Under the pieces are notes generated by a model. It did no database searches. It had not been told where the DNA came from and saw only the letters and a program-made list of their open reading frames with translations. The translations under genes were made by a program, and so were the position numbers. From the IMG/VR virus record IMGVR_UViG_2778261634_000009, positions 1 to 38,423 of that record: 38,423 nucleotides of DNA; one strand, given 5' to 3'. Shown piece by piece: positions 4,816 through 37,929 of this stretch. This stretch comes from a virus. Lineage: Duplodnaviria > Heunggongvirae > Uroviricota > Caudoviricetes. The number at the start of each line of letters is the position of its first letter. The stretch's first letter is position 1.

Positions 4816-4997
4816 GGTGTGCTCCTTATTTATACATAACGAAAAACGCCTCGAGTGAAGCGTTATTGGTATGCATATAAAAAAGCCCTCACACTGGAGG
4901 GCAAAGAAGATTTCCAATAATCAGAACAAGTCGGCTCCTGTTTAGTTACGAGCGACATTGCTCCGTGTATTCACTCGTTGGAATGAATACACAGTGC

Positions 4998-5186
4998 TTA
5001 TTCGTCATGCATTTCAGGTAATTCTTCGTATTCGACGCCCCATACGTTTTCACACCAACTAACTCGCTCATATCTTTTACAGAAATCAGACCACATAACT
5101 TGTGTTCCATCATGGTTTGTTATTATTTCTGTAATATCACCAACACTAACAAAACTGGTATTAGAAGCAGTTATTTTTACTTTCAT
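4998..5186 (-). CDS. hypothetical small protein
   Basis: 62-aa ORF in AT-rich stretch of the early-left operon. Confidence 0.4.
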   Translation of the reverse strand: MKVKITASNTSFVSVGDITEIITNHDGTQVMWSDFCKRYERVSWCENVWGVEYEELPEMHDE

Positions 5187-5476
5187 TACTCATCTCCAAG
5201 AGCTTTGCTAATTGCTGACTGTGCTTTCGATACTTCATCAGGATAATGGTCATTCCAGTTTTGCTTGTATGCCTTGTTTAGCATCGCTTTCATGGCATTT
5301 AAAAGGTCAGGTGCTGCCGCTATTAGATTGGCATCTTCAATGCATTGAACTTCCTCACAGATTGCAATATACGAACGCCAGCCTGTGCCATTTTCAAGTG
5401 AGTCTGCCTGGATGATTTTAATCTCATCGCCATCCATCATTATTTCCCACTTACCTTCAGTACCTTTAAATTCCAT
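5186..5476 (-). CDS. hypothetical protein
   Basis: 96-aa ORF, early-left operon. Confidence 0.5.
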   Translation of the reverse strand: MEFKGTEGKWEIMMDGDEIKIIQADSLENGTGWRSYIAICEEVQCIEDANLIAAAPDLLNAMKAMLNKAYKQNWNDHYPDEVSKAQSAISKALGDE

Positions 5477-5515
5477 GTTAGCCTCTGTTGTTTATGCCAA
5501 AAATAAAGGCCACCA

Positions 5516-5767
5516 TCAGGCAGCCTTGTTGTAAATGTTGCAGGTATCAAGTAAGTAATTAGATGGAGCGCCATAAATTATGAATTCATCGTTTGTCGGG
5601 TCCATCTCCATCTCTTGGCCTATTGCCATTCTTGCGTCAGTGTCATCAGAGGCGAAGCATAAAACAGCCCACGCACCCATTGTTTTAAAAAGAACTGCAA
5701 TTGGCTGTGGTTTTACTGAATTTGCGTTAGCGCGAAAATCACAAATCGCACTTTCATGAAATTCCAT
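5516..5767 (-). CDS. hypothetical protein
   Basis: 83-aa ORF, early-left operon. Confidence 0.5.
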   Translation of the reverse strand: MEFHESAICDFRANANSVKPQPIAVLFKTMGAWAVLCFASDDTDARMAIGQEMEMDPTNDEFIIYGAPSNYLLDTCNIYNKAA

Positions 5768-5880
5768 ATATCACCCCTCATACAGTGGTTTGCTGCTTAA
5801 TTTAATTTTCTGGCGACCAACACAAGTCACACCCATTTCACTGCGTGGCTTGCGGTAGTAAATACGGTTATTTATGTAAT

Positions 5881-5903
5881 AAAAAACCCGCCTTAGCGGG
5901 TTA
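5881..5903 (-). terminator. intrinsic terminator immediately after the first pL gene (tL1-like)
   Basis: Minus-strand RNA reads UAA UAA CCCGC-UAAG-GCGGG UUUUUU: GC stem, 4-nt loop, U6 run, starting right at the stop codon. Confidence 0.6.
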
Positions 5904-6347
5904 TTATTTCTTTGGATTTAGCTTTTCCATGTTCTCTGCGATCGTACCTATTCTTGACCTTATTGTTGGAACATCAATTCCTCTCTGTATGTCTACATTT
6001 AAAGACATAAGCTCTCTGCTCCATCCTGCGATCGCATCGTGAAATTGCCTTGCCCTGCTTGCTTGTCTACGTCTGCTGCTTTCAAGCTCTGTAAGCATTT
6101 GCTTTGCTTCGATCTGAGACTTGCCTTGCCCAACTCCCAATGCATCGATTGCACATTGCTTCATCTCTGCTTTTATCAAAGGGTGAAGATTTTCAGCGCC
6201 AATAAAAATTACCTCGTCTATGCTTTTAAAAAGCAGAAGGCAATCAGTAACAACTTTGGTTCTTTTATCATCACACCTTACCTCTACCGAAGGTACGCCG
6301 CCATATTGCTTAACTCTCATTGCCGTATAAACTGTAGCACTCTTCAA
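5904..6347 (-). CDS. hypothetical 147-aa protein, first gene of the leftward early operon (N position), TTG start
   Basis: TTG start at 6347 preceded by AAGGAGG with 5-nt spacer; followed directly by an intrinsic terminator; no N-terminal arginine-rich motif, but an internal arginine-rich segment SSRRRQASRARQFHDAIAGW. Confidence 0.6.
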   Translation of the reverse strand: MKSATVYTAMRVKQYGGVPSVEVRCDDKRTKVVTDCLLLFKSIDEVIFIGAENLHPLIKAEMKQCAIDALGVGQGKSQIEAKQMLTELESSRRRQASRARQFHDAIAGWSRELMSLNVDIQRGIDVPTIRSRIGTIAENMEKLNPKK

Positions 6348-6504
6348 ATCAGCCTCCTTTTTCTTTTTCTATATCAAAAAGCTGCTTTGCTTTTTGTGAC
6401 TAAAAGCAAAAAAGCCTTCTCGCTAATGAGCAGCATTGCCGTTCATCCTGAACCCGCCGCGCTCCCGACGCATGGTTTAATGTCGCGCCGTTCGACATGG
6501 CTTA

Positions 6505-6538
6505 ACTATATCCAAAGCTATTATTGCTGTAAATAGCT
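6505..6538 (-). promoter_or_regulatory. OL operator and candidate pL promoter
   Basis: Inverted repeat AGCTATT-N9-AATAGCT at 6516..6538; on the minus strand a -35 TTTACA (6533..6528) and -10 TATAGT (6510..6505) with 17-bp spacing overlap it. Confidence 0.5.
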
Positions 6539-6630
6539 ATAGTTATAAAATAACTACTTTGGTTATTTAGTCATTGATATCTAATGTAATTTATTTTTCT
6601 TGTATGTGAGATTTGGTGTTTTTTGGGCAA

Positions 6631-6654
6631 TAAAAAACCCGCAAAAGCGGGTTT
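6631..6654 (-). terminator. intrinsic terminator downstream of cI
   Basis: Minus-strand hairpin AACCCGC-UUUU-GCGGGUU followed by U6, about 20 nt after the cI stop and before OL/pL. Confidence 0.65.
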
Positions 6655-6671
6655 GTTGTGGTGTGATGAGG

Positions 6672-7403
6672 TTAGTAGTCAACTACAGACCACCAGAAGA
6701 TTCTTCCGATGATCTCTATATCGCTTAGATTCTTTTCTTCTTGTGGGTATTCCAGTGAGTTAAAGCTTCTAATGCTTACCTTGTCAGGCCCTGATCGAAA
6801 GAGAATCTTAATGCGTTTCCAGCCGTTCTCGTTAATGGCGTAAATCTTTCCGTCAACTATTTTCTTATCGTTGGTGTTAACAGCAACTGTTGTTCCATCA
6901 GGAATGTTTGGCTCCATGCTGTTGCCACGAGCCGGAAAACAAACAACCCCGCTTCCATCACTGTTCGCGCCAACTCTGCGAAGGGTTGATTTGGAAAAGC
7001 GCAACATAAAGCCGTTGTGATCTTCATCAATCACCCGACCATCCCCGCATGCAAACTCAATATCTTTAAGGTAAGGAATTTCAACTTCATCACCTCTTAA
7101 AGGCGTTCCTCCATCCCATGGGTCCAAATATCCCCACGTGCTTTCATGAGGAATAGAAGATTTTGGATTATAAGGTTCAACTCCCTCATCACGCATTGGC
7201 CCAGTTCCATCGGAAAGCCATTCCGTACGAACTCCAAGCACTTTTGATATTTCAAAAAGTTTGCGCGTATTGCGTGTTTTTCCAGACGTAAGTTTCCAGA
7301 CGCTTGGCTGAGACATGCCAACAGCATTGCCAAGTGAAGCCTGAGTAAAACCAGCCTGATCCATCGCGTATGTAAGCCTTTGAGAAAAAGTATCTAGTTT
7401 CAT
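6672..7403 (-). CDS. cI: CI-type prophage repressor (N-terminal HTH, C-terminal LexA/S24-like autocleavage domain)
   Basis: 243-aa ORF; XRE-type HTH (FTQASLGNAVGMSQPSVWKL) at the N-terminus and a C-terminal S24 peptidase-like region; divergent from cro across an operator region. Confidence 0.9.
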   Translation of the reverse strand: MKLDTFSQRLTYAMDQAGFTQASLGNAVGMSQPSVWKLTSGKTRNTRKLFEISKVLGVRTEWLSDGTGPMRDEGVEPYNPKSSIPHESTWGYLDPWDGGTPLRGDEVEIPYLKDIEFACGDGRVIDEDHNGFMLRFSKSTLRRVGANSDGSGVVCFPARGNSMEPNIPDGTTVAVNTNDKKIVDGKIYAINENGWKRIKILFRSGPDKVSIRSFNSLEYPQEEKNLSDIEIIGRIFWWSVVDY

Positions 7404-7409
7404 TCGGAT

Positions 7410-7483
7410 AACCTATAGCTACAGCTATTATTAGTCAAATACCTAAAGCTATTTACTTTCTGAATAGCTTTGGCTATTATTCT
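7410..7483. promoter_or_regulatory. OR operator region with candidate pRM (leftward) and pR (rightward) promoters
   Basis: AGCTATT-N9-AATAGCT at 7447..7469 mirrors the OL site; additional GCTATTATT repeats; pR -35 TTTACT (7452..7457) / -10 TATTAT (7475..7480); pRM -35 TTGACT and -10 TAGGTT on the minus strand placing the start near the cI ATG (leaderless, as in lambda). Confidence 0.5.
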
Positions 7484-7511
7484 GATTGTGAATTCAGCAG
7501 GAGTTATTTTT

Positions 7512-7742
7512 ATGGTTAACAAGGCTATTAAAGCGGCTATTGACTCAGTAGGAAGTCAGCAAAAGTTAGCTGATGCCTGCGGTGTTAAGCAGCCGTCTGT
7601 ATGGGCTTGGTTGCATGGGAAGAAAAGGGTATCCGCTGAAAATGCCAAGCGCATTGAAATGGCTACCAATGGAAGCGTCCCTGCATACCTGATTCGCCCT
7701 GATTTATCCGCTTTGTTCCCCAATCCGAACAAAGCAGCTTAA
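7512..7742 (+). CDS. cro: Cro-type repressor
   Basis: Start at internal Met of track ORF 7470..7742, AGGAG 9 nt upstream; 76 aa with HTH (QQKLADACGVKQPSVWAW); divergent from cI. Confidence 0.8.
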   Translation: MVNKAIKAAIDSVGSQQKLADACGVKQPSVWAWLHGKKRVSAENAKRIEMATNGSVPAYLIRPDLSALFPNPNKAA

Positions 7743-7861
7743 TAAAGCAAATTTTTATACCGAACGGCCCGGTATACGGTCGGGTGCCCGGCGTGGTCAT
7801 GGATGACTGTCAATGGTGCACAATAAAAAACCAAATTATTTACCTATGGAAATAGTAAGAA

Positions 7862-8158
7862 ATGGAACAAACAAGTTACAGCAAACTATCACAGCGCGAC
7901 GTTGATCGCGCAGAAACAGATTTACTCATCAACCTGTCAACGCTTACCCAGCGCGGTCTGGCAAAGATGATTGGCTGTCATGAATCGAAGATAAGCAGAA
8001 CGGACTGGAGATTTATTGCTTCGGTCTTGTGTGCTTTCGGAATGGCATCAGACATCAGTCCGATTAGCAGGGCTTTTAAGTATGCGCTTGATGGACTCAC
8101 AAAGAAAAAACGCCCGGCGGCAACCGAGCGTTCTGAACAAATCCAGATGGAATTCTGA
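7862..8158 (+). CDS. cII: CII transcriptional activator
   Basis: 98-aa ORF whose C-terminus KKKRPAATERSEQIQMEF matches lambda CII as remembered; HTH in the middle; immediately downstream of cro. Confidence 0.85.
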   Translation: MEQTSYSKLSQRDVDRAETDLLINLSTLTQRGLAKMIGCHESKISRTDWRFIASVLCAFGMASDISPISRAFKYALDGLTKKKRPAATERSEQIQMEF

Positions 8159-8190
8159 GGTCATTACTGGATCAATCCACAGGAGTAATT

Positions 8191-8835
8191 ATGACATACG
8201 AAAATGACAAATTCCAGGTTCTGAAGAGCATGAAGGTGCCAGATGATTTTAAATCAAATGGCTTTGTTTATGTGCTTTCGAATGAGTGCATGCCAGGAAT
8301 TTATAAGATTGGGATGACTAAGCATTCACCAGAAGTTAGGGCTAAAGAAATTTCAGCCTCTACTGGCGTTCCTAAGCCATTTAAGGTGATAGCAGCCTTT
8401 CATTCAAATAATCCAGCATCAGATGAAAAACTCATTCATAAAGCCTTTGCAAAAGAGAGGCTTAGTGATAATCGAGAGTTTTTCAAGCTTGAAGATAATG
8501 AGCTTTCTGAATCTCTAAATGAAATAAGGGCGCTGGTTGGCCCTGAAAGAAATGGCGAGACGGCAGAATACGCAATTTACGACGCATTCATTTCTTTTCG
8601 CCATGAAAATGAGCTTGATCTTAATGAGGAGCTTATAGAGCAAGGTCTGGGTAGTGTAGTTGGTCATCTTCCTGCGGTGAAAAATTTCCTTATTCGCGCC
8701 GGAATTGATTACGCGAAGCAACTGATAAGCAAATATAACTCATCGATAGTTATTAATACAGATGGCAGTGTGGTGATGGTTAAGTCTCTTGAAGCCCAAT
8801 GCTTTGATGCGGAGGTTGGAAATGAGCCTGGCTGA
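8191..8835 (+). CDS. T5orf172 / MUG113 (GIY-YIG-like) domain protein
   Basis: 214-aa ORF; GFVYVLSNECMPGIYKIGMTKHSPEVRAKEISASTGVPKPFKV...NREFFKL fits the T5orf172 domain pattern; visibly AT-rich compared with flanking cII and O; 3' end overlaps the O start. Confidence 0.7.
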   Translation: MTYENDKFQVLKSMKVPDDFKSNGFVYVLSNECMPGIYKIGMTKHSPEVRAKEISASTGVPKPFKVIAAFHSNNPASDEKLIHKAFAKERLSDNREFFKLEDNELSESLNEIRALVGPERNGETAEYAIYDAFISFRHENELDLNEELIEQGLGSVVGHLPAVKNFLIRAGIDYAKQLISKYNSSIVINTDGSVVMVKSLEAQCFDAEVGNEPG

Positions 8836-9664
8836 AGTATTTTACCTGCCGAAGAGTGAACCTGTTGAACAGGAGCGAAGAGTGGCTGATATCGATGATG
8901 GTTACACCAGATTCGCTAACGAGCTGCTGGAAGCTATCGCAAGTGCCGATTTAACCGCTCGCCAGTTGAAAGTTATGCTGGCCTACGTCCGGAAAACATA
9001 TGGCTTCAATAAGAAAACAGATCGAATAGCCGATGAGCAAATTGCTCAGTTAACAGGACTGTCAAGGCAGAATGTTAACAAGGCTAAAAAAGAACTGATT
9101 TCAATGAATTGCCTGTTTATGGATGGAAATCAAATCGGTGTAAACAGGGAGGTATCTGCGTGGCAATTCAGCAAGTGTCTCCAAGTTAGCAACTTTGTCT
9201 CGAAGTTAGAGACAAAAAGTGTCTCCAAATTAGAGACACTCAATGTCTCGAAGTTAGAGACACACAAAAGACATTCTTTAAAGACAAAAGAAAATATTAA
9301 TAAACCCCCTATATCCCCCAAAAAAGTTTCTCAGAAGTTCGACCCGCTAGAAACAGAGTTGCCTGATTGGTTATCAGCAGAAACATGGTTGTCGTGGGTT
9401 ACCTATCGCAAGGAGATAGGTAAGTCGATCAAGTCTAAGCAAAGTGTCACTCAGGCTATCAACGTTCTATGCAGAAGTCTGGAGAAGGGATATACACCTG
9501 AAGAAATTATAAACCAGAGCATCGCCAGTGGTTGGCAGGGTATTTTTGAGCCCAAGACTCCAAAGGGGAAATCTCAACCGAGGCCGCAGCATCGAGCTAT
9601 GCAGGAAAACTTTGCCACCAAAGATTACGGACAAACTGAAATGCCTTCATGGGCGCAGGAGTGA
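8822..9664 (+). CDS. replication initiator protein O-like
   Basis: Start at internal Met (GGAGG upstream) of track ORF 8789..9664; N-terminal region LTARQLKVMLAYVRKTYGFNKK... typical of phage O N-terminal domain; iterons embedded mid-gene. Confidence 0.8.
   Translation: MSLAEVFYLPKSEPVEQERRVADIDDGYTRFANELLEAIASADLTARQLKVMLAYVRKTYGFNKKTDRIADEQIAQLTGLSRQNVNKAKKELISMNCLFMDGNQIGVNREVSAWQFSKCLQVSNFVSKLETKSVSKLETLNVSKLETHKRHSLKTKENINKPPISPKKVSQKFDPLETELPDWLSAETWLSWVTYRKEIGKSIKSKQSVTQAINVLCRSLEKGYTPEEIINQSIASGWQGIFEPKTPKGKSQPRPQHRAMQENFATKDYGQTEMPSWAQE
9177..9263. repeat. origin iterons (four about 18-bp repeats GTCTC(C/G)AA(G/A)TTAGAGACA) followed by an AT-rich stretch
   Basis: Four direct repeats at about 9177, 9197, 9221 and 9246, each with internal inverted symmetry GTCTC...GAGAC, encoding the repeated peptide SKLET; AT-rich 9264..9305 follows; lambda-type ori inside the O gene. 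Confidence 0.65.
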
Positions 9665-9666
9665 AC

Positions 9667-10512
9667 ATGACGCTGGATGAAAAGATCTCCCAACTGGAGA
9701 AAAAACTTGCAGAATTGAGTTCTCCGCCAATTGCTATCGAGCATACAGCTGTAGAAATTGGCACTGGCATCTGTGAAAAACATGGTGAGTTTGAGCAGCG
9801 TAACCGTTACTCGACTGGGCCAATTAAGTTTGCCTCAAGACCTAGCGAATGCCCGGAATGCATGAGAGATGAGCTTATTCGGCTACAGGCAGAGAAGATT
9901 AAAATCGACGAGGAATCACGTAAGCGCAATGTCGAGTTTCTGTTGAATAATCTTGATATTCCTGAACGATTCAAGGGTTGCACACTACAGAACTACGAGC
10001 CAGTCAACGACGATGCAAAGAGAGTGCTCAGGGTGTGTCAGGCATACGCCAGCAAATGGCCTGAGAGGTTACAGAAAGGCGGTGGGCTGGTTATGTGTGG
10101 AAAGCCTGGTACTGGAAAGAATCATCTTGCACTGGCTATCGCCCGGCACGCAATTACGGAACATCAAAGCTCAGCTATTTTCACAACGGCGCTGAAAATT
10201 GCCAGAGAATATAAATCAACATGGTCGAAAAACTCCACCCGCACAGAGGATGAAGTGATCCGACAGTTCACTAAACCTGACCTGCTAATTATCGATGAGG
10301 TTGGTGTGCAGTTCGGAAGCGAGGCGGAAAAGATGATCATGTTCGAAATCATCAACACCCGCTACGAGCGCATGAAGCCAACAATCCTGATTAGCAACCA
10401 GAGCAAAGATGAACTGTCTGCATTCATTGGTGAGCGTGTTATTGACAGGATGAATGATGGCGGCGGATGCACCCTTGCGTTTACATGGGATAGTTACAGG
10501 AGCAGAACGTGA
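9667..10512 (+). CDS. DnaC-like helicase loader / replication ATPase
   Basis: Walker A CGKPGTGKNHLA and Walker B LLIIDEVG; follows O directly; start at internal Met of track ORF 9649..10512. Confidence 0.8.
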   Translation: MTLDEKISQLEKKLAELSSPPIAIEHTAVEIGTGICEKHGEFEQRNRYSTGPIKFASRPSECPECMRDELIRLQAEKIKIDEESRKRNVEFLLNNLDIPERFKGCTLQNYEPVNDDAKRVLRVCQAYASKWPERLQKGGGLVMCGKPGTGKNHLALAIARHAITEHQSSAIFTTALKIAREYKSTWSKNSTRTEDEVIRQFTKPDLLIIDEVGVQFGSEAEKMIMFEIINTRYERMKPTILISNQSKDELSAFIGERVIDRMNDGGGCTLAFTWDSYRSRT

Positions 10513-10799
10513 CTGGAAAAGAAATCATCCTGGAATATCTGAAAACTCATGAACAATTCTCCCCACATGAATTAGCACTGATCACCGGAATACCAAATAA
10601 CAGAATCGCTCAAGCAGCAAGGCATATGGTGAAACAAGGACATTTGAGTGTTGTTGAGCGTAAGTGGAAGACGGTTATTTATGCAAAACGCAAAGTGAAG
10701 AAGGAGCCAATTAAAAGAAATCCAGATGGTACGGGGTGGGGATGTGCAAATCCAATGACGGCGTTTATTAATAGGGCGCTTATGGAGGTAAGGCAATGA
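10509..10799 (+). CDS. hypothetical protein
   Basis: 96-aa ORF with ATGA overlap to the loader gene. Confidence 0.5.
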   Translation: MTGKEIILEYLKTHEQFSPHELALITGIPNNRIAQAARHMVKQGHLSVVERKWKTVIYAKRKVKKEPIKRNPDGTGWGCANPMTAFINRALMEVRQ

Positions 10800-10882
10800 C
10801 CATCTACATCACTGAGCTAATAACAGGGGCTATTTACACAGTAGCCCTTTTTTATTGGATTAAGAGCGAGGGGTAAGTACCG

Positions 10883-11065
10883 ATGGTAAATGCATTTATT
10901 TGTAGTTTATTTCTTGTCGCGATTTTTCATGGATTCCTTCTGATGATGAGTTTTGTTCTCTGGGATAATGCATATCGCATATTGGGGGTAGGTTTTGTTT
11001 TACGGTTTTCAGTCGTCTGCGCGTTGCTACCGATAATTATGGCGACTATCAAATATTATTGGTAA
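10883..11065 (+). CDS. hypothetical small membrane protein
   Basis: 60-aa ORF, two hydrophobic segments, AT-rich. Confidence 0.35.
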   Translation: MVNAFICSLFLVAIFHGFLLMMSFVLWDNAYRILGVGFVLRFSVVCALLPIIMATIKYYW

Positions 11066-18105: not shown

Positions 18106-18594
18106 ATGGCAGCACCAAAGGGCAACCGATTTTGGGAGGCCCGCAGTAGTCATGGGCGAAATCCTAAATTCGAATCGCCCGAGGCGCTGTGGGCTGCTTG
18201 TTGTGAATACTTCGAGTGGGTAGAAGCTAACCCGCTATGGGAGATGAAGGCATTCTCGTATCAGGGTGAAGTGATACAAGAGCCTATCGCCAAGATGCGA
18301 GCGATGACCATTACCGGCCTCACTCTGTTCATTGATGTGACGCTTGAAACATGGCGCACATATCGCCTGCGAGAAGATTTATCTGAAGTCGTTACGCGAG
18401 CAGAGCAGGTCATCTACGACCAGAAATTCTCTGGCGCAGCCGCTGACCTTCTCAACGCTAACATCATCGCCCGTGATTTGGGCCTCAAAGAGCAGTCGCA
18501 AGTTGAAGACGTGACACCTGATAAGGGAGATCGCGATAAGCGGCGCTCTCGTATCAAGGAGCTATTCAACCGTGGAACTGGACGCGATTCTTGA
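18106..18594 (+). CDS. terminase small subunit (P22 gene 3 type)
   Basis: [48 protein letters not shown]... matches P22 gp3 as remembered; 162 aa from the third in-frame ATG. Confidence 0.85.
18373..18394. promoter_or_regulatory. pac site for headful packaging, inside the small terminase gene
   Basis: GAAGATTTATCTGAAGTCGTTA matches the 22-bp P22 pac sequence as I remember it. Confidence 0.5.
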
Positions 18595-20071
18595 TAACCT
18601 GAGCGACGAAGAGCAAATCGAATTGCTCGAGCTACTCGAAGAAGAAGAGAACTACCGGAACACACACCTGCTATATGAATTTACGCCATACAGCAAACAG
18701 CGTGAGTTCATCGACGCCGGGCATGACTATCCAGAGCGCTGTTTTATGGCTGGTAACCAGCTTGGTAAGTCATTTACTGGTGCTGCTGAAGTCGCGTTTC
18801 ACCTTACCGGGCGTTATCCGGGCACAAAAGGCTATCCTGCTGATGGTAAATATGGCGGTGAGTGGAAAGGTAAGCGTTTTTATGAGCCTGTTGTCTTTTG
18901 GATTGGTGGCGAGACAAACGAGACTGTAACCAAAACGACTCAACGCATCCTGTGCGGTCGTATCGAAGAGAATGATGAGCCTGGCTACGGTTCCATACCG
19001 AAAGAAGACATCATTAGCTGGAAGAAGTCTCCTTTCTTTCCGAACCTTGTTGATCACCTTCTGGTTAAGCATCACACGGCTGATGGCGTTGAAGATGGCA
19101 TTTCAATCTGCTACTTCAAACCATACTCGCAAGGCCGCGCTCGCTGGCAGGGTGACACAATCCACGGCGTGTGGTTTGACGAAGAGCCACCATACAGCAT
19201 TTATGGCGAAGGCCTTACCCGTACCAACAAATACGGTCAATTCTCAATTCTGACGTTTACCCCGCTAATGGGGATGTCTGACGTTGTTACCAAGTTCCTG
19301 AAGAATCCCAGCAAGTCGCAGAAAGTGGTCAACATGACCATCTATGACGCTGAGCACTATACCGACGAGCAGAAAGAGCAAATCATCGCATCCTATCCCG
19401 AGCATGAGAGAGAGGCGCGTGCTCGCGGTATTCCTACGATGGGTAGCGGTCGAATCTTCCAGATACCGGAAGAGACGATTAAGTGCCAGCCGTTCGAGTG
19501 TCCTGATCACTTCTACGTAATTGGCGGGATGGATTTCGGATGGGATCACCCACAAGCGCAGGTTCAGCTTTGGTGGGATAAGGACGCAGACACAATCTAC
19601 GTTTCACGCGTGTGGAAGGCGAAAGAAAAAACAGCCGTTCAGGCATGGGGAGCTGTTAAATCATGGGCGCATAAAGTGCCAACAGCATGGCCTCATGACG
19701 GAAACCAGCACGAGAAGGGCGGCGGTGAGCAGCTTAAAGGGCAGTACGCGGACGCTGGTTTTATGATGTTGCAGGAGCATGCGACATGGCCTGATGGCGG
19801 TAATGCTGTTGAGCCTGGCATCACTGAATTGCGAGACATGATGCTCGATGGTCGCTTCAAAGTATTCAACACCTGTGAGCCATTCTTTGAGGAGTTCCGC
19901 CTCTATCACCGTGATGAAAACGGGAAGATCGTCAAGCTTAACGACGACGTTCTCTCAGCCGTTCGCTATGCATACATGATGCGCCGCTTCGCCAAAATGA
20001 TGCGCGACATCAAAAAACCAAAAGAGAAAAAGATACCAGCCCCAATCAGGCCCATCGCACGGAGAACTTAA
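18572..20071 (+). CDS. terminase large subunit (P22 gene 2 type)
   Basis: 499-aa ORF, same length as P22 gp2; ATPase Walker A-like GNQLGKS and nuclease-domain acidic residues; overlaps small-subunit gene. Confidence 0.9.
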
Positions 20072-23162: not shown

Positions 23163-24457
23163 TGGCATTAAATGAAGGTCAACTGGTCACGTATGCTCTG
23201 GATGAAATCATCGAAACCATCCAGAACCTGACGCCAATGGCGTCCAAAGTGACAAAATACACCCCTCCGGCAGAATCCATGCAACGTTCAAGCAACACCG
23301 TGTGGATGCCTGTTGAGCAGGAAGCGCCAACTCAGACTGGCTGGGATTTAACTGGCAACGCTACCGGTATTCTGGAACTGTCCGTGAAATGCAACATGGG
23401 CGATCCGGATAACGATTTCTTCGAGCTTCGTGCAGATGACCTGCGTGATGAGCGTTCTTACCGTCGCCGCATCCAGGCATCCGCCAAAAAACTGGCGAAT
23501 AACATTGAGTCAGCAATTGCCAAACAGGCAACTGAAATGGGCTCACTTGTTGTTCACGATACCCGCGCAATTGGTCCATCTACTGGCCTGTCTGGCTGGG
23601 ATTTTGTGTCTGATGCAGAGCGCCTGATGTTCTCCCGTGAGCTAAACCGCGATATGGGCATCAGTTACTTCCTGAACCCTGACGATTACCGCAAAGCAGG
23701 CCGCAATCTTGTAGATGGTGACATCTTCGGGCGCGTTCCTGAAGAAGCGTATCGCAACGGTACTATTCAGCGTCAGATTGCTGGCTTTGATGAAATTCTT
23801 CGCTCACCGAAACTTCCGGCAGTTACCAAGTCAACCGCTACTGGTGTAACTGTGTCTGGTGCGCAGAAGTTTAAGCCGCAGGCATACACCCTTGATACCG
23901 ATGGTAACAAAGAGAACGTCGACAACCGTGTTGCAACGGTGACCGTATCCTCCACCACCGGATTTAAGCGCGGCGACAAAATCAGTTTCACTGGTGTGAA
24001 ATTCCTGTCTCAGATGGCGAAGAACGTGCTAACTGATGATGCGACTTTCTCAATCACCCGTGTGATCGATGGTACTCACATCGAAATCACGCCGAAACCG
24101 ATTGCACTGGATGACGCGTCACTGACAAAAGAAGAGAAGGCTTACGCTAACGTAAACACCTCTCTTGCTGATACCACTCCGGTAAACGTTCTGAACGTGG
24201 CAACAACCACCGCTAACGTGTTCTGGGCTGATGACTCAATCCGTCTGCTGTCTCAGCCGATCCCGGTAACCCATGAACTGTTTGCTGGCATGAAAACGTC
24301 TTCCTTCAGCATTCCTGGCATTGGTGTTAACGGCATCTTCGCAACGCAGGGTGATATCAACACTCTGTCTGGTAAGTGCCGTATTGCTGTGTGGTATTCA
24401 GCATGTGCTGTACGACCAGAGGCAATTGGTGTTGGTCTGCCTAACCAGACCGCGTGA
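23162..24457 (+). CDS. major coat protein (P22 gene 5 type)
   Basis: 431-aa ORF directly after scaffold; size and position as P22 gp5 (430 aa). Confidence 0.9.
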
Positions 24458-24500
24458 TAACCAGAGGGAGCTTCGGCTCCCTTTTCTATTGGAGATACCA

Positions 24501-25094
24501 ATGAGCGTAATGATTTTTCAGGCTGGCGGAGATACCAAAATCTGGGGACGCAAGCTGAAAACGAAAACCGTTGATCCTGATGATGTAGCTGTGCACTTAG
24601 CAAATGGCTGGTATAAGCACCCTGACGATGTTCCTGATGATCCTCTTGTTGGTGATCAAATTGGGAGTGTTGGCGGAGGTGAAACTTCCCCAGTTGATAT
24701 GGGCGAAGTGTCCGACGGTTATCACACTTTTAACGAGCTTTACGCTCACCGAGTGCGCCTCTTCTCATCGCTGATGCATGCTTACGCTGAGCTTTCGTGG
24801 TGGTCTCGCAAACACAGTGACGGTGAAGAGTGGGATGGCTGGATCATTGCTGGTATCACCACTCCAGAAGGCGAAATCACTTATCACCTACCTGTTGAAG
24901 AAATCGAGTTCCTTCCTGAAGGTACTGAGCTTGAGTTCGGGAAAGAGTGGGATGGTCATGAAGCAAATGATGTTCTTGGACGACTCCTGAGTTTGCGTCC
25001 GGCTATTGCAGAGCCAGAGCCAGAAGAAAAACAGCGTAAAAAGCCTGGTCGAAAACCTAAGGCGGCAGCAGATGAACCTGACAACGAAGGGTGA
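24501..25094 (+). CDS. hypothetical protein between coat and head-tail adaptor genes
   Basis: Start at internal Met with GGAGA upstream, within track ORF 24321..25094 (whose 5' extension overlaps the coat gene); acidic 197-aa product; 3' end overlaps gene 4 start. Confidence 0.5.
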
Positions 25095-25572: not shown

Positions 25573-26991
25573 ATGCCGATTCAGCAACTTCCGCTTATGA
25601 AAGGTGTCGGCAAAGACTTCCGAAACGCCGACTATATCGACTATCTGCCAGTGAATATGCTGGCAACCCCCAAAGAAATCCTTAACAGCAGCGGATATCT
25701 TCGTTCATTCCCGGGCATTGCCAAACGTTCTGATGTGAACGGCGTATCGCGCGGCGTCGAGTACAACATGGCGCAGAGTGCTGTTTATCGCGTGTGTGGC
25801 AGCAAGTTGTATAAGGGCGAAAGCGAAGTCGGTGACGTCGCCGGAAGTGGTCGCGTATCAATGGCGCATGGTCGAACATCTCAGGCTGTAGGCGTTAATG
25901 GTCAACTGGTCGAGTATCGCTATGATGGCACGGTTAAAACAGTCTCAAACTGGCCTACAGACAGCGGATTCACGCAGTATGAGTTAGGTTCGGTTCGTGA
26001 CATTACGCGCTTACGTGGGCGTTATGCGTGGTCAAAAGACGGCACTGATTCATGGTTTATCACTGACCTTGGAGATGAATCGCACCCTGACCGATACAGC
26101 GCACAATATCGCGCAGAATCGCAGCCTGACGGCATCATCGGCATCGGAACATGGCGAGACTTCATCGTCTGCTTTGGTTCATCGACGATTGAATATTTTT
26201 CCCTGACTGGTGCAACCACTGTTGGTGCCGCTTTGTATGTCGCCCAGCCATCGTTGATGGTGCAAAAAGGAATCGCCGGAACCTACTGCAAAACGCCGTT
26301 TGCTGATTCGTATGCGTTCATCAGCAATCCGGCAACAGGTGCGCCGTCTGTTTACATCATCGGCTCCGGTCAGGTATCACCAATCGCCAGCGCGAGCATT
26401 GAGAAAATACTACGCTCCTACACTGCTGATGAACTGGCTGATGGCGTGATGGAATCGTTGCGGTTTGATGCTCATGAGTTGCTGATTATTCACCTGCCGC
26501 GCCATGTTCTTGTTTACGACGCATCTTCAAGCGCCAATGGTCCGCAATGGTGTGTGCTGAAAACAGGCTTGTATGACGATGTGTACCGCGCTATCGACTT
26601 CATTTACGAAGGCAATCAGATAACGTGTGGCGATAAGCTGGAATCGGTGACCGGGAAATTGCAATTCGATATATCTTCACAATACGAAAAACAACAAGAG
26701 CATATTTTATATTCCCCTCTAATAAAGGCTGATAACGTTTTAATAAATGACCTTGAATTAGAAACATCTGGCGGCGTGTGTGATAGAATAGATAGAATAT
26801 TTATATCAGCCACTACAGATGGGATTAATTACGGTCGTGAGCAAATGGTCGTATTACAAAAACCATTTGTATATGACAATCGCGTTTTATGGCGAAAAGT
26901 TGGTCGAGTTAGACGTCTCATTGGATTTAAATTCAGAGTTATTGCAAAAGGTCCTGTTACATTATCAGGCCTTTCTATTCGTGTAACATAA
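25573..26991 (+). CDS. tail hub protein (P22 gene 10 type)
   Basis: 472-aa ORF, same length as P22 gp10, following gene 4; last roughly 110 codons visibly AT-rich. Confidence 0.8.
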   Translation: MPIQQLPLMKGVGKDFRNADYIDYLPVNMLATPKEILNSSGYLRSFPGIAKRSDVNGVSRGVEYNMAQSAVYRVCGSKLYKGESEVGDVAGSGRVSMAHGRTSQAVGVNGQLVEYRYDGTVKTVSNWPTDSGFTQYELGSVRDITRLRGRYAWSKDGTDSWFITDLGDESHPDRYSAQYRAESQPDGIIGIGTWRDFIVCFGSSTIEYFSLTGATTVGAALYVAQPSLMVQKGIAGTYCKTPFADSYAFISNPATGAPSVYIIGSGQVSPIASASIEKILRSYTADELADGVMESLRFDAHELLIIHLPRHVLVYDASSSANGPQWCVLKTGLYDDVYRAIDFIYEGNQITCGDKLESVTGKLQFDISSQYEKQQEHILYSPLIKADNVLINDLELETSGGVCDRIDRIFISATTDGINYGREQMVVLQKPFVYDNRVLWRKVGRVRRLIGFKFRVIAKGPVTLSGLSIRVT

Positions 26992-27012
26992 ATCGAAACT
27001 CAAGGAGTAGAT

Positions 27013-27546
27013 ATGTTAAGTGAAAACGCAAAAGATATCGAAGGATATGAAGGACTGTACGCCATCACTAATGATGGTAGAGTTTACTCGCATTCAAGAG
27101 TAAATTTGAGGGGGCGTCTTATTAAGGGGAGGTGGCTGAAGCATAATCATAACGTAAATGGATATAAGTATGTGTGCTTATATAAGGATGGCGTAAAAAA
27201 GAACATACTAATACATAAGCTTGTTGCATCTCACTTTGTCGGTGGATTTGCTGAAGGGTTACAGGTTAATCATATAGATGGTGATAAGTATAATAATAAC
27301 TATCTAAATCTTGAATGGGTTACTCCATCAGGAAACATCTCACACTCATATGGATTGGAATCGAGAGGTAATGTAAAAGGAGAAAGGAATGGTAATTCTA
27401 AAATATCTAATGATGATGTCATAAAGATAAAAGAAATGGTTGCCAATGGATTTCCTCAGTGTGAAGTTGCTAAATTATTTGGAATTCACAATTCAAAGGT
27501 TAGTAGAATTGTAAATGGCAAGGCATGGAGGCATGTTAATGGCTGA
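27013..27546 (+). CDS. HNH homing endonuclease (NUMOD4 N-terminal motif plus HNH_3 core, C-terminal HTH-like region)
   Basis: [16 protein letters not shown] is the NUMOD4 signature; [11 protein letters not shown]...[20 protein letters not shown] is the HNH core; AT-rich; inserted between tail genes 10 and 26. Confidence 0.8.
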
Positions 27547-28492
27547 TTCGAATCTCAATGTGCCGGTAATCATTCAGGCTACACGGCTCGATACATCAAT
27601 ACTTCCACGCAATATCTTCTCTCAGTCGTATCTGCTTTACGTTATTGCACAGGGCACTGATGTTGGTAACGTAGCTAACAAGGCCAACGAGGCCGGACAG
27701 GGCGCTTATGACGCACAAGTCAGGAACGATGAGCAGGATGTCACCCTTGCAGACCATGAATCCAGAATTGAAGCTGCTGAAGCAACTATCATCAATCATG
27801 AACATAGAATTGCAGCAGCGGAAAGCACTCTTGCAGATCATGAAACAAGGATTACGGCTGCTGAAACAGAGCTGGCTGATCACGAGACGCGAATTGCTGC
27901 CAATGAATCTGAGTTAGCAGATCATGATGCGCGCATAACTCAGAATACAACCGATATCGACGCACTTGATACCAGGCTCACAGCGGCAGAGGGGAGTATT
28001 TCGACGCTACAAAGCACAGTTGGTGATCACTCAACAAGAATATCTGCGCTTGAGTATGCCACCACGCGCAAGAAATCAGAGGTTGTTTACTCAGGGGTAT
28101 CGGTAACAATTCCGACAGCGCCTACCAACCTTGTTAGCCTGCTGAAAACGCTCACGCCGTCATCCGGCACGTTGGCACCATTCTTCGACACCGTTAACAA
28201 CAAGATGGTTGTGTTCAACGAGAACAAAACCTTGTTCTTCAAGCTGTCGATTGTCGGGACGTGGCCCAGCGGAACCGCCAACAGGTCAATGCAGCTAACC
28301 TTTTCCGGCTCTGTTCCTGACACGTTGGTCAGCAGTCGTAATGCGGCGACAACAACCGACAACATCCTGTTAGCTACGTTCTTCAGCGTGGATAAAGACG
28401 GATTTCTTGCCACAAATGGCAGTACGTTAACCATTCAGTCAAATGGGGCGACGTTTACTGCCACAACCATCAAGATAATCGCGGAGCAGTGA
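27539..28492 (+). CDS. tail needle (P22 gene 26 type) with divergent C-terminal knob-like domain
   Basis: N-terminus [43 protein letters not shown] matches P22 gp26; central heptad repeats ADHE(S/T)RI; C-terminal about 120 aa unlike P22, Thr/Ser-rich beta-type sequence; start overlaps HNH stop. Confidence 0.85.
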
Positions 28493-31017: not shown

Positions 31018-32891
31018 TGGCTAAAGCATGGAAAGATGTTATCGCCTCTCCACAGTATCAGGCGTTAACTGAAGAACAGAAAGCACAGGCTCAAGCGCAA
31101 TATTTTGATGAGGTTGTTGCCCCTAAGGCTGGTGACAAATGGGCTGAAGCAAGAGATCAGTTTTATGCAGCATACCCTCCGCCTCAGCAGCAGAAAGAAG
31201 AACCATCATTGATGCAACAAGCTGGCGATTGGCTCACAGGTGGTCAAAGTGCCGGGCAAATTGCAGAACAGGCTGGTCGTGGTCTGGTAAACATACCATT
31301 TGACGTATTGCAGGGTGGCGCAAGTCTGATTAATGCTATCAGCCAGGGGCTTGGTGGCCCAAAGGTTTTGGATGATGTTTATCGCCCTGTCGATCGACCG
31401 ACAGACCCCTACGCACAAGCCGGTGAAACAATTGGTGGGTATTTAGTTCCAGGAGTTGGAACGGCAGGAAGCATGGCTATTGGATCACTGGCAGAGGCCG
31501 CAAATCAGAAAGGCGATTTCGCACAAAATGCAGCTAAAAATGCCGGAGTTAACCTTGCCGCTCAAGGTGTTCTTTCCGCAGCAGCAAAGGGAATAGGGCG
31601 TGGAATAACGGCTATAAAAGGTGATATTGCGCCAGAAGTGGCGAAGAAAATTGCCACATCAGAATCGATGGGCGTGACACCAATGACATCTGATGTTATC
31701 CCGCCGAAAAATGCTTTCACTCGCGGCCTTACTCAGGATGCCGAGGGGGCTTTGCTCGGGACGGGCTCAAAGCGAGCAGAGCAATATGCAACGCGTAGTA
31801 AGCTGGTAAGCAATTATTTTGACCGTTTTGGTGAGTACAACCCTGATGATGTGGTGAAATCTCTGACCACCACGTTAAGGGGACGGAAGGATACTGCTGG
31901 CGCTGTTATCAATGACGTCACCAATAAAATGGGTAATGCCGCAGTTGATACCACAAATACCATGAATGCTCTGAATACAGCGATCGCAAGACAGGAACGG
32001 CTTGGGACTTCAGCCAATCAAAGCCTGCTTACATCCTTGCGTAACCTACGTGAAGAATTAGCAAACCCTGCAACTGATTTGGATGTTACGTTTGATCTCT
32101 TGCGTCAGCACAGAACAGCCTTTAGATCTAATGTTCAGGGAGATGCTATGGTCTTCCCCAACCAGGCAAAAGCAGCTACCAATATGGTAGAGAATGCAAT
32201 GTCAAAAGACCTTCGTAACGCAGTTGCTAAAAACCTCAGTGCATCAGACGCAGCAAAATACCTTAAAGCAAATTCCGATTATGCAAACGTTTATAATAAG
32301 GTGCTTAATAAAAACATTGCTAACAAACTCAACAAGGCAAGCAGTGAAGCCAGTCCTGAACTTATAAATACCGTTGTATTAAGCAGAAAACCATCTGACG
32401 TGAAACGAATCTGGAGCGCACTGGATGATAAAGGGAAAGATGCTATGCGTGCAGCTTACGTCAGCAAAATAGCGGAAAAGGCCGGTGACTCTCCAGCCAA
32501 GTTCATCACTGAAGTTAATAAGCTGAAATCTCAGTCAGGCGGTGAAATTTACAACACTATTTTTTCTGGAAAGCACATGAAAGAACTTGATGCTCTTAAT
32601 GAAGTTCTACAGCAAACAGCAAGGTCAGACACCGCAAATGTAGTAACTCAGACGGGGCAATCGCAAGCCAACAGGATAAGGACGATTGGCGCAACTGCGA
32701 CTCTTGGCGTATCAATGGGGCTTGAGGCTGGTTTCGGTGCAATGATGCGCTTGTATGAGTCCAAAGCAGCAAGGAATGCGCTCTTACGTCTGGCAAACAC
32801 CAAAGCAGGAACGCCAGCCTATGAAAGAGCATTAAGTAACGCTGCAAATGCCATCAGACCGCTGCTTGCCACTGAGGCAACACAGCAGTGA
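31017..32891 (+). CDS. ejection protein, P22 gene 16 type
   Basis: 624-aa ORF, position and size as P22 gp16; start overlaps gene 20 stop. Confidence 0.75.
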
Positions 32892-32908
32892 CTAAATGCC
32901 ATGGATGG

Positions 32909-33097
32909 TTATTTCCCTAGCACATGAAACAATGTTTGCTTTAATTCCACCCATACAATTATGACCACTATAGACAGACAAAAGAAACTGAATGCATTGG
33001 CATCACGATCGAAACCTTCTCCGGCACTAAATCCGTAAAAGGTCATAAAAAATATAAAAATTGCGCACTTTGCAACGTTTACAAATTTTTTCTTCAC
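32909..33097 (-). CDS. small two-segment membrane protein (moron), GTG start
   Basis: 62-aa ORF with two hydrophobic helices; GTG start preceded by TAAGGAGGT with 5-nt spacer; AT-rich; convergent with gene 16 and divergent from the lipoprotein gene. Confidence 0.5.
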   Translation of the reverse strand: MKKKFVNVAKCAIFIFFMTFYGFSAGEGFDRDANAFSFFCLSIVVIIVWVELKQTLFHVLGK

Positions 33098-33214
33098 ACC
33101 AACCTCCTTAGTTTTTAGCAGGATACCATGAAAAAAGTAAACATCTTTTGCCTACTTCACATTTGAATGGTTTGTCATTAGGATGTTTCCGGTTTTTTAA
33201 ATATGGAAATTGAT

Positions 33215-35826: not shown

Positions 35827-37929
35827 ATGACAGACATTACAGCCAATGTTGTTGTTAGCATGCCTTCGCAACTCTTCACTATGGCGCGTTCTTTTAAAGC
35901 CGTAGCCAATGGCAAAATTTATATCGGTAAAATTGACACGGACCCTGTAAATCCTGAAAACCAGATTCAGGTTTATGTAGAGAATGAAGACTGTTCTCAC
36001 GTTCCTGTTTCTCAACCAATCATCATTAATGCTGCTGGTTATCCGGTATATAACGGGCAGATTGCCAAATTCGTAACCGTGCAAGGCCACTCTATGGCTG
36101 TTTATGATGCGTACGGTGTGCAGCAGTTCTATTTTCCAAATATTTTAAAGTACGATCCTGACCAATTGAGACAGGAATTAAGCAATCCTGCAGATGGCGT
36201 CGGCGATGCTTTGATCGCTGTAAAACAGCCTGTTGATGGCTCGATTGCTGTAACTCAGCATGATAAAAACGCTGAGAACATCAGTGCGATTGATTTTGGT
36301 GCTAAGGGTGATGGTGTCACTAACGATGTTGCGGCTTTGCAACTGATGGCTACCAAGGTAGGTTATATCCGCCTCACGAGAGGAAGTTACTTCCTTACCA
36401 CCTCTACCCTTGATGCTCCAGTCATCTTCGAAGATGGTGCGGCTTTAGTTTCGGCGAAGAACAACACTGTCACCATCACTGGCGCTATCACCTCGATTCG
36501 TCAGTGGATATTTAAAGGTGATGGCCTGTACTCGCTGAGTAATGACACTAACAGCGGTGAAAACTCCAGGGAGATTCACGCGTCATGGTTTGGCGTATTT
36601 CCAACCGGCACAACCGAAATAGACCAGTCAACCGCGCTTAATAAGGCACTGTCCTCTCTTGGTACATCACGAGAGGGAGTCGTTCATTTTGATATTGGTC
36701 GCTATACGCTGGGAGCTGCCGTGCAGGTTCCCCGTGCGATTGAGATCAGAGGGAAAGGAAGTCGCAGGACAATTTTTAACGTAACAGCCAACGACTTCGA
36801 CGTTTTCACTCCTCAGGCTAACGGGGTTAAGTTCACTGGAATTCAGTTTGAGCCATCACCAAACCTGTCGACAGGATTCCGAAGCTCTGGACACTGGATA
36901 AACCTGTCTCAGCAACTTTGCGAGGTAGATGATGTCTGGATGGGAAGGGCATTCCAGAGCCTGAAAGTTACCGCAGGGCAGTGCAAGCTGCGACGTATAT
37001 CAGCGACCTATTCAGAGAGCGTGGGTTCTGGTTCTTATCTGATTTCAATTCAGGGATCAGATTGCTCGCTGGAAGGCGTGCACGTTGCCAGTTCAAACTT
37101 TGGTCCAACGAGGATAGTTGAGGTTGGTGGTGAAGAAACATCAAACGTGTCAAATGTCCTGGTTGATAATGTCACCTTCAATAACCCATCCATTGGCATT
37201 TCAATCAACACCACCGTGAGGGTCATATCAGGAATAATCATTCGTGCTATTCGCTGCAAAGGTAATGCAAACTATCCTGCGATTCGTTGTGTTGAGCTGA
37301 CAACATCAGGGACCGGAACAGGCAATATTAATAATGTGGTGATTGATGGAGTGACGGCTAATGAATACGTTACTCACTGCCTGCTTATTTCCCAGGGGAA
37401 TAACGGGTCAATCACCAAGGTGTCCGCGAGCAACTTTAAGGTAAATGGATCCACAGGTGTTGGGATTAACTTTGTTCAAACGCTTGGCAGACTTTCAACA
37501 ATAGTCATCGGTGACACTGTGGATGTTTCGGCATATGCAACTCCTTACCAGTACAGCGGAACAATGAGTAATGTTGTGGTGGCTGCGGAAGCTAACCCAA
37601 TTACTAACACTGCTCTATGTTACGACTACACAATTAATGATGACTCAGTTGTTTCCATTGATCTTCACAGACAAATGTTTACTGGATTCCTGATGGTAAG
37701 TGTGGGTACCGAGGAGTATGCAATTCTCGTTATAAGAGCTGCGGCAAGCCAGAGAATATTGACTGTGCAGGTTTCAGGGAACGTCAATACAACAACAGGC
37801 GTATTAACTGGAACAACCGGTGCTGATGGAAAATTTACTGTTGGGATAGCGAACAGCGCCCTCTATTTTGAGAACAGGCTTGGCAACTCTCAGCGAGTAA
37901 GTGTTTCAACACTATTTGGCATTCGTTAA
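35827..37929 (+). CDS. tailspike protein: P22-type N-terminal head-binding domain fused to a different right-handed beta-helix receptor-binding/depolymerase domain
   Basis: First about 115 aa ([34 protein letters not shown]...KYDPDQ) match the P22 gp9 N-terminal domain as remembered; remainder unlike P22 gp9 and contains a pectate-lyase-like motif [21 protein letters not shown]. Confidence 0.85.

Follow-up and report, generated by a model that had tools for sequence, protein, structure and literature searches.

Probable spread by intron-less homing of a cassette joining an HNH endonuclease gene to a divergent tail-hub gene end in P22-like phages

Introduction

The endonucleases SegF, SegG and MobE of T-even phages cut the endonuclease-free allele away from their own gene, and repair then copies the gene together with flanking markers (PMC2988022, PMC2790892). 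In Skunavirus phages, HNH endonucleases resembling I-HmuI cluster by insertion site, and some of them show marker exclusion in vivo (PMC12724721). The present work concerns a related arrangement in a 38,423-nucleotide stretch of viral DNA, IMG/VR virus record IMGVR_UViG_2778261634_000009 (positions 1 to 38,423, hereafter the window), which is the genome of a phage or prophage that is P22-like (Lederbergvirus-type) and of the E. coli/Shigella kind. In this genome an HNH gene lies between gene 10, encoding the tail hub gp10, and a homologue of gene 26, encoding the tail needle, and the adjoining 3' end of gene 10 is AT-rich and strongly divergent. Our comparisons indicate that positions 26673-27558, comprising this divergent tail, a spacer with a ribosome-binding site and the I-HmuI-like HNH gene, probably constitute one mobile cassette of about 885 bp that spreads by intron-less homing.

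The tail hub is about 90% identical among P22-like phages of Salmonella, Escherichia and Shigella, and in Sf6 its N- and C-terminal extensions fold into an apical lamin-B1-like domain that docks between the head-to-tail adaptor's subunits (PMC9728967). Since the C-terminus of the Sf6 hub belongs to this apical docking domain, the cassette swaps in an unusually divergent version of one part of a conserved assembly interface.

The nearest characterized protein is I-HmuI (PDB 1U3E), from the DNA-polymerase intron of Bacillus phage SPO1, an enzyme that nicks one DNA strand. The two proteins are of similar length (177 and 174 residues), have the same domain order and share the catalytic histidine and both asparagines; however, they are only about 35% identical, and D74 of I-HmuI is an asparagine in the window HNH. 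Furthermore, the gene for I-HmuI lies within a group I intron and the enzyme cuts beside the intron insertion site, whereas the HNH gene of the window is free-standing between intact genes. In SPO1 and SP82, the competing intron endonucleases I-HmuI and I-HmuII, diverged HNH homologues at the same site in related phages, were reportedly described by Goodrich-Blair and Shub in 1996. The gene 10/26 site is comparable, as diverged HNH types (A, B and C, 43-56% identical) occupy it with nearly the same flanks; competition among these three types is, by analogy, a conjecture.

The locus shares with the T-even endonucleases a position between conserved essential genes, a sporadic occurrence, a co-inherited flank from a neighboring gene and co-conversion tracts of variable length (PMC2988022, PMC2790892). 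It differs in that the T-even enzymes are GIY-YIG or other HNH endonucleases of virulent T4-like phages, with demonstrated cleavage and crosses, whereas the evidence from this temperate P22-like phage or prophage is comparative; moreover, its linked flank is an unusually divergent allele (55% at the nucleotide level) and a fixed part of the cassette. The lactococcal Skunavirus enzymes are likewise free-standing and I-HmuI-like, with several recurrent sites, variable C-terminal DNA-binding regions and less conserved neighboring core genes (PMC12724721). They belong to another phage group and host, in which some of the enzymes showed marker exclusion.

The HNH gene between gene 10 and gene 26

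The features of the locus, in window coordinates, are as follows.

25573..26991, + strand: gene 10 (tail hub gp10), whole; Pfam Phage_stabilise, 1.2e-280.
25573..26672, + strand: GC-normal "head" of gene 10, codons 1-366, of ordinary E. coli/Shigella P22-like type.
26673..26991, + strand: AT-rich and divergent 3' "tail" of gene 10, made up of its last 106 codons and the TAA; left part of the putative cassette.
26992..27012, + strand: 21-nucleotide spacer with the HNH ribosome-binding site AAGGAG (27002-27007), read from the sequence.
27013..27546, + strand: free-standing I-HmuI-like HNH gene, 177 residues, ATG start, with NUMOD4, HNH_3 and a C-terminal region resembling a helix-turn-helix (HTH).
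27268..27336, + strand: HNH catalytic motif N86-H87 ... N99 ... N108, aligned to I-HmuI.
27527..27558, + strand: right end of the putative cassette, with the needle Shine-Dalgarno sequence, the needle ATG (27539) and the first 20 nucleotides of gene 26.
27539..28492, + strand: gene 26 homologue (tail needle, Sf6-type knob), flank beyond its first ~20 nucleotides; Pfam Phage_tail_NK, 8.1e-108.

The initial annotation had described a 177-residue open reading frame with NUMOD4 and HNH signatures, inserted between the tail hub and needle genes and with its stop overlapping the needle start, and our analysis confirmed this description. Both of the motifs it quoted are present, and the Pfam matches exceed their cut-offs, for NUMOD4 (PF07463, residues 7-57, 5.1e-13, 49.5 bits against 23.4) as well as for HNH_3 (PF13392, 5.1e-10, 39.3 bits against 24.8). 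The gene sits precisely between gene 10 and gene 26, which are complete open reading frames on either side. Its TGA (27544-27546) overlaps the needle ATG (27539-27541) as ATGGCTGA, and the needle Shine-Dalgarno sequence GGAGG (27527-27531) lies within its last codons.

The protein also matched PHROG 59, "HNH endonuclease" (2e-49), and I-HmuI in a phmmer comparison with PDB 1U3E (8.4e-21 over residues 7-174). Its C-terminus gave weak matches to HTH_23 (18.6 bits) and HTH_38 (16.2 bits), both under their cut-offs, in a region that the 1U3E alignment spans to residue 174. The catalytic residues H87, N99 and N108, whose presence the initial annotation had left to be verified by alignment, correspond to H75, N87 and N96 of I-HmuI and are invariant in six homologues, I-HmuI included. 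Sixteen copies of the type A gene, whose protein (WP_000947776.1) is labeled in RefSeq as a NUMOD4 domain-containing protein, differ at 29 polymorphic sites. Of these, 23 are synonymous, although only 21% of sites are synonymous, and the ratio of nonsynonymous to synonymous divergence (dN/dS) is 0-0.08; these values point to strong purifying selection and hence to a protein that is kept functional.

As no match to a group I intron or any other RNA family was found in Rfam at E<=1 over 26000-28200, the HNH gene is not intron-encoded. Between 26400 and 27800, no + strand promoter and no terminator on either strand were found, the sole consensus promoter match being on the - strand, and the gene is therefore probably read together with the late operon.

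Divergence of the gene 10 tail

The AT-rich character that the initial annotation had noted at the 3' end of gene 10 was clearly recovered. In 200-nucleotide windows, GC content is 0.46-0.55 upstream, 0.34-0.38 across 26600-27599 and 0.46-0.49 beyond, so that sliding-window GC falls from about 0.50 to about 0.36 over 26673-27546. This low-GC run is the longest in the window (300-nucleotide windows: mean 0.47, standard deviation 0.044). Shorter low-GC stretches (0.35-0.40, 300-nucleotide windows) are seen at 4900-11000, in the early region, and at 32900-33200, past the open reading frame ending at 32891.

Gene 10 is 1,419 nucleotides long in every relative, which allowed an ungapped comparison. 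Alignment with endonuclease-free relatives located the insertion site and the tract edges, the left edge of the AT-rich part falling at 26673, nucleotide 1101 of gene 10; the AT-rich part is therefore the last 106 codons, and starts at 26673 rather than at 26640 as had been proposed. Over the head (first 1,098 nucleotides), the window shares 94% of nucleotides and 99% of amino acids with the HNH-free phages Gally, HK620 and Sf6. Past TTCGATAT at 26672, identity to the same phages drops sharply to 55-57% of nucleotides and 64-65% of amino acids. HNH-free tails are 93-99% identical to one another at the amino acid level, from Salmonella P22 through the E. coli phages, and the AT-rich tail is about equidistant (64-69%) from all of them, including that of a Proteus phage.

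Composition is indeed not uniform along gene 10, as GC at third codon positions (GC3) is 0.53 in the head, where the first and second positions (GC1 and GC2) stand at 0.55 and 0.45, and 0.20 in the tail. The Gally tail has a GC3 of 0.59, and GC1 and GC2 are 0.50 and 0.36 in the window tail versus 0.52 and 0.37 in the Gally tail, which places the AT shift almost wholly at third positions. The initial annotation spoke of a recoding of the gene 10 3' end. This is the wrong word, since 35% of the amino acids differ and nonsynonymous divergence (dN) from Gally reaches 0.34 in the window tail, compared with 0.0036 in the head, with synonymous sites of the tail saturated. Within the class of AT-rich tails, dN/dS is 0.06-0.13, in line with purifying selection. 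On these figures, the gene 10 tail appears to be an old divergent allele class and not a synonymous rewrite, and in the simplest reading it most likely evolved in a low-GC genome before being imported.

Linkage between the tail and the HNH gene

Of 5,426 complete E. coli genomes, 834 have matches to the flanks of the region, and the AT-rich tail is present in 52 of the genomes as well as in one of 128 matching phage records. About 94% of related E. coli prophages do not have the HNH gene, nor do phages P22, Sf6, HK620, CUS-3 and Gally. Wherever the AT-rich tail occurs, an HNH gene follows it, in 52/52 E. coli genomes (three of them interrupted by an insertion sequence, IS), 28/28 IMG/VR contigs and 8/8 metagenome contigs. 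The same pairing is present in phage HZ41, in a Citrobacter prophage (L022) and in two metagenomic contigs (L021 and L023), the architecture and the place of the GC drop being the same in the last three. A reverse search of IMG/VR from the HNH side gave the converse, as the AT-rich tail precedes every HNH gene at the gene 10/26 site. The gene is always at this one fixed site, between gene 10 and gene 26.

Type A HNH genes, with an identical protein, are carried by 34 of the 52 E. coli genomes and type B genes by 16. Apparent E. coli cases of a tail without the HNH gene, or the reverse, were set aside, as they proved to be IS1 or IS3 insertions: ETEC6333 and ETEC6334 have an IS3 element after gene 10, with type A HNH sequence beyond it, and in M160133, counted among the 16 type B genomes, gene 10 and the HNH gene are separated by an IS1. 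The AT-rich spacer region seems to attract such insertions. IS1 or IS3-family elements lie between gene 10 and the HNH gene in two annotated E. coli prophages (L004:2865-3562; L005:1681-2909), and an uncharacterized insert of about 800 nucleotides occupies the same interval in L052 (between 2194 and 3001).

The presence of the HNH gene had been presented as uncommon and as the mark of an invasion event. It is a minority feature by the above counts, but it does not reflect a single event. At least three HNH types share the site and a second HNH site exists in many relatives (see below), so that HNH genes in this operon are neither rare curiosities nor the outcome of one invasion.

Evidence for movement of the cassette

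The basis for proposing spread is comparative, and not a cross; it consists of a tail more conserved than the head, a low diversity and variable flank tracts. Compared with the window, the gp10 head is 80% identical at the amino acid level in the Citrobacter prophage L022 and 72% in L023, versus 91% and 84% for the tail and, by BLAST, 87% and 60% for the HNH protein. The tails of these two distant lineages are thus closer to the window than their heads are, which means that the cassette is better conserved than its host gene 10. In contrast, HNH-free phages whose head is 99% identical to that of the window have a tail that is only 65% identical.

Across seven type A loci, nucleotide diversity amounts to 0.066 for the head, 0.024 for the tail, 0.008 for the spacer and HNH gene and 0.072 for the first 200 nucleotides of the needle gene. 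The cassette is thus about eight times less diverse than its flanks, which suggests recent spread. Cassettes that are 99.8% identical stand beside differing needle types and differing gene 4 types, and very different gene 4 types accompany the cassette.

Three loci (L029, L030 and L031) have a coat gene, a gene 4 and a gene 10 head of P22 type, resembling Salmonella phages. Their heads turn to E. coli type about 130 nucleotides (L029, L031) or about 800 nucleotides (L030) upstream of the tail, and their needle gene is of cassette type for the first 20 nucleotides only, then of P22 type. These flanks are variable co-conversion tracts around a constant core. The proposal that flanking sequence was co-converted during homing therefore needs to be shifted rather than abandoned: horizontal spread with co-converted flanks is upheld by the comparison, but the AT-rich tail itself is a constant part of the cassette, and the tracts that vary are situated further upstream, in sequence of normal GC content, and over the first 20 nucleotides of the needle gene.

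The tail has its left edge at 26673 in every type A locus and in some of type B; in most type B loci this edge falls between 26697 and 26704. Both edges lie where the DNA codes for LQFDISSQYxKQQEH, a peptide that even the most distant lineages have kept, and this DNA would be the first place where a diverged recipient offers homology. A third left boundary, considered for L031, was rejected, as an in-frame 9-nucleotide duplication had shifted the ungapped alignment. This duplication lies in the gene 10 tail (L031, ~2760-2790) and gives CDRIDRIDRIF for CDRIDRIF.

Proposed mechanism and alternative explanations

From a mechanistic point of view, a phage carrying the HNH gene would come upon an HNH-free relative, either during co-infection or when phage meets prophage, and the late-expressed endonuclease would nick or cut the HNH-free gene 10/26 region. 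The break would then be repaired from the HNH-carrying genome, copying the cassette, with a left crossover in the patch encoding LQFDISSQY, a right crossover in the conserved 5' end of the needle gene, and additional flank sometimes dragged along. As the DNA of the cassette tail shares only about 55-60% identity with that of the resident tail, recombination inside it would not take place and the tail and the HNH gene would always be copied together. The divergent tail would probably also remove or alter the target of the enzyme, thereby shielding the carrier. Two putative targets are plausible: the gene 10/26 junction, which the insertion splits, and a conserved patch at about 26650-26700 in HNH-free genomes, in which nearly all codons are changed in type A carriers (including AGC AGC to TCT TCA). 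Cutting by the HNH protein, the position of the cut, immunity provided by the tail and a low-GC P22-like donor are what we infer from these comparisons.

Several points weigh against homing, in which both cleavage and its target site are putative. Residue D74 of I-HmuI, a metal ligand, is replaced by an asparagine (N86) in the window HNH and in all P22-like homologues, a change that is probably tolerated. A large part of the E. coli genomes are clonally related to one another (ETEC, enterotoxigenic E. coli, and O111), so that the linkage counts make independent events look more numerous than they are. Constraint, rather than recent spread, could account in part for the low diversity of the HNH gene, though this extends to synonymous sites. 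No low-GC P22-like donor of the AT-rich tail was found in phage, protein, GTDB, IMG/VR or metagenome searches: in tblastn against 50,697 phage records, the best tails from outside the cassette were 66-69% identical (P22 and Proteus phage Brookers), with APSE at 59%; a search of 5.8 billion proteins gave only fragments, the best intermediate being 77% identical; GTDB species representatives gave zero matches by protein pattern and by DNA pattern; and scans of IMG/VR and metagenomes with the degenerate ELETSGGVCDRI pattern returned only more cassette-bearing P22-like contigs, with GC-normal heads. Finally, the left edge of the tail takes only two positions, about 25 nucleotides apart, in more than 40 loci, as would also be expected from a few ancestral recombinations followed by ordinary mosaic reassortment. 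The latter process could be extended to the whole locus: a distant P22-like phage would have supplied the tail and HNH module on one or a few occasions, through illegitimate or homeologous recombination, and general homologous recombination would then have shuffled it, with the HNH gene as an inactive passenger. P22-like genomes are indeed highly mosaic, patterns of single-nucleotide polymorphisms in the flanks reassort freely among HNH-carrying and HNH-free genomes, the two left edges both fall in a patch conserved in all lineages, and the support for homing is comparative. We nevertheless consider this explanation unlikely, because an inactive passenger is expected to decay, yet dN/dS of the HNH gene is 0-0.08 and the catalytic motif is intact in all types. 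Furthermore, the cassette is about eight times less diverse than the sequence on either side of it, with mostly synonymous sites involved, it has entered backgrounds whose gp10 heads are only 72-80% identical, and at least three diverged HNH types are maintained at one site.

The divergent tail might alternatively have arisen in place, the resident tail having changed after insertion of the HNH gene through target-destroying selection or AT-biased mutation near it. This would fit an AT shift lying almost entirely at third positions, and the conservation at the left edge of the peptide DISSQYxKQQEH with nearly every codon changed, including AGC AGC to TCT TCA. It is, however, quite improbable, as over a third of the residues differ in a protein otherwise 93-99% conserved from Salmonella to E. 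coli phages (dN 0.34), and divergence is even over 320 nucleotides, or 106 codons, rather than confined to a target-sized patch; escape from a target of about 25 bp would not need 140 substitutions. The knife-sharp boundary, and the occurrence of the same tail under Citrobacter-type and other heads, also argue for import. It is even harder to believe that the HNH protein is a working part of the phage rather than a selfish one, for instance a packaging HNH comparable to HK97 gp74 or an accessory of the tail or of injection. Such a role would suit the position of the gene in the operon for virion assembly, its translational link to the needle gene and the purifying selection on it, but some 94% of related E. 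coli prophages lack the gene, as do P22, Sf6, HK620 and CUS-3, whose assembly and packaging are normal. In addition, its architecture is that of the homing nickase I-HmuI and not of a short terminase-partner HNH, and it lies about 7 kb downstream of the large terminase open reading frame (18572-20071). Intron-less homing of the cassette thus seems to us the probable explanation, and the cassette is a well-documented case of a known phenomenon, a free-standing HNH homing endonuclease with a linked flank.

Diverged HNH types and a second HNH site

At least three diverged HNH types, sharing 43-56% of their amino acids, occupy the gene 10/26 site beside nearly the same AT-rich tail. Type B, likewise a NUMOD4-HNH protein, is about 50% identical to type A and is also found in phage HZ41 (L003:2501-3046), and type C (L083:9677-10219, L105 and L115) is 43% identical to the window HNH. 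Further HNH genes at this site are those of L022 (4001-4546) and L023 (1974-2522). Types A and B have in common the tail, the spacer, the first ~40 nucleotides and the last ~25 nucleotides of the HNH gene, and differ in between. Every HNH type at the site ends in GK[AST]WRHVNG*, a conservation explained by the fact that these codons hold the GGAGG ribosome-binding site and the ATG of the needle gene.

A second HNH site, at the gene 10 5' end, was observed in many P22-like genomes of phages and prophages (L007:226-1010; L002:2501-3300; IMG/VR loci L054-L079). The order there is gene 4, 93 nucleotides left over from the start of gene 10 (31 codons followed by stops), a spacer, a gene for an HNH protein of 194 residues and a full-length gene 10. 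The spacer, as seen in L007, is nearly identical to window positions 26990-27015. The 194-residue protein is 43% identical to the window HNH, and its first ~47 residues are common with type B. The first ~105 nucleotides of the following gene 10 are recoded (GC3 of 0.34 versus 0.57) and overlap the 3' end of the HNH gene. Both HNH genes occur together in L007, L028, L032 and L044; in the window, gene 10 starts (25573) directly after the last position of gene 4 (25572), leaving no HNH gene at the gene 10 5' end. Homologues of 172 residues (about 47% identical) were also noted in other P22-like genomes, namely IMG/VR loci L033-L039 and phages N7 (35994-36503), ST-35 and 29485, at a locus that has no similarity to the region from the coat gene to gene 20.

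A broader and more tentative idea, which we regard as rather doubtful at present, is that the gene 10/26 junction may be a shared "landing pad" at which types A, B, C and others replace one another and compete, each bringing a functional, nuclease-resistant substitute for part of an essential virion gene. The AT-rich gp10 tail, the spacer and the conserved first ~40 nucleotides of the HNH gene would then serve as a left arm, and the last ~25 nucleotides of the HNH gene with the needle start as a right arm. The HNH gene at the 5' end of gene 10 would be the mirror image, bringing its own recoded first ~35 codons and leaving the 93-nucleotide remnant behind. If true, this would mean that homing endonucleases can enter coding sequence without introns or inteins by means of substitute gene ends, and that they drive allele turnover of the apical domain of the tail hub, formed by its N- plus C-terminal parts.

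Significance

A specialist in homing endonucleases will find nothing surprising in this cassette. It nevertheless offers a clean natural example in which a selfish nuclease transfers a portion of an essential structural gene among E. coli, Salmonella-type and Citrobacter lineages of temperate enterobacterial phages and prophages, and it explains one sharp mosaic boundary within an otherwise highly conserved tail-hub gene. The available genetics of P22, Sf6 and HK620 and the solved hub structures make it a tractable system for the study of intron-less homing in phages that are not T4-like. In annotation, the C-terminal variant of gp10 should be taken as a marker of the HNH gene and not of a different tail type. 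We found no published description of the cassette in the literature searched, which was without the two reviews of P22-like genomes likeliest to mention it.

Other features of the region

The local gene order in the window is coat gene, gene 4, gene 10, the additional HNH open reading frame, needle gene, gene 14, gene 7 and gene 20. Another additional open reading frame, of about 197 residues, lies between the coat gene and gene 4 (24500-25094 on the + strand, inside the open reading frame 24321..25094) and encodes a WDGH domain (PF25311, 1.3e-39). At this position, HK620 and Sf6 have only a small gene of about 60 residues (hkbT and gene 6, respectively).

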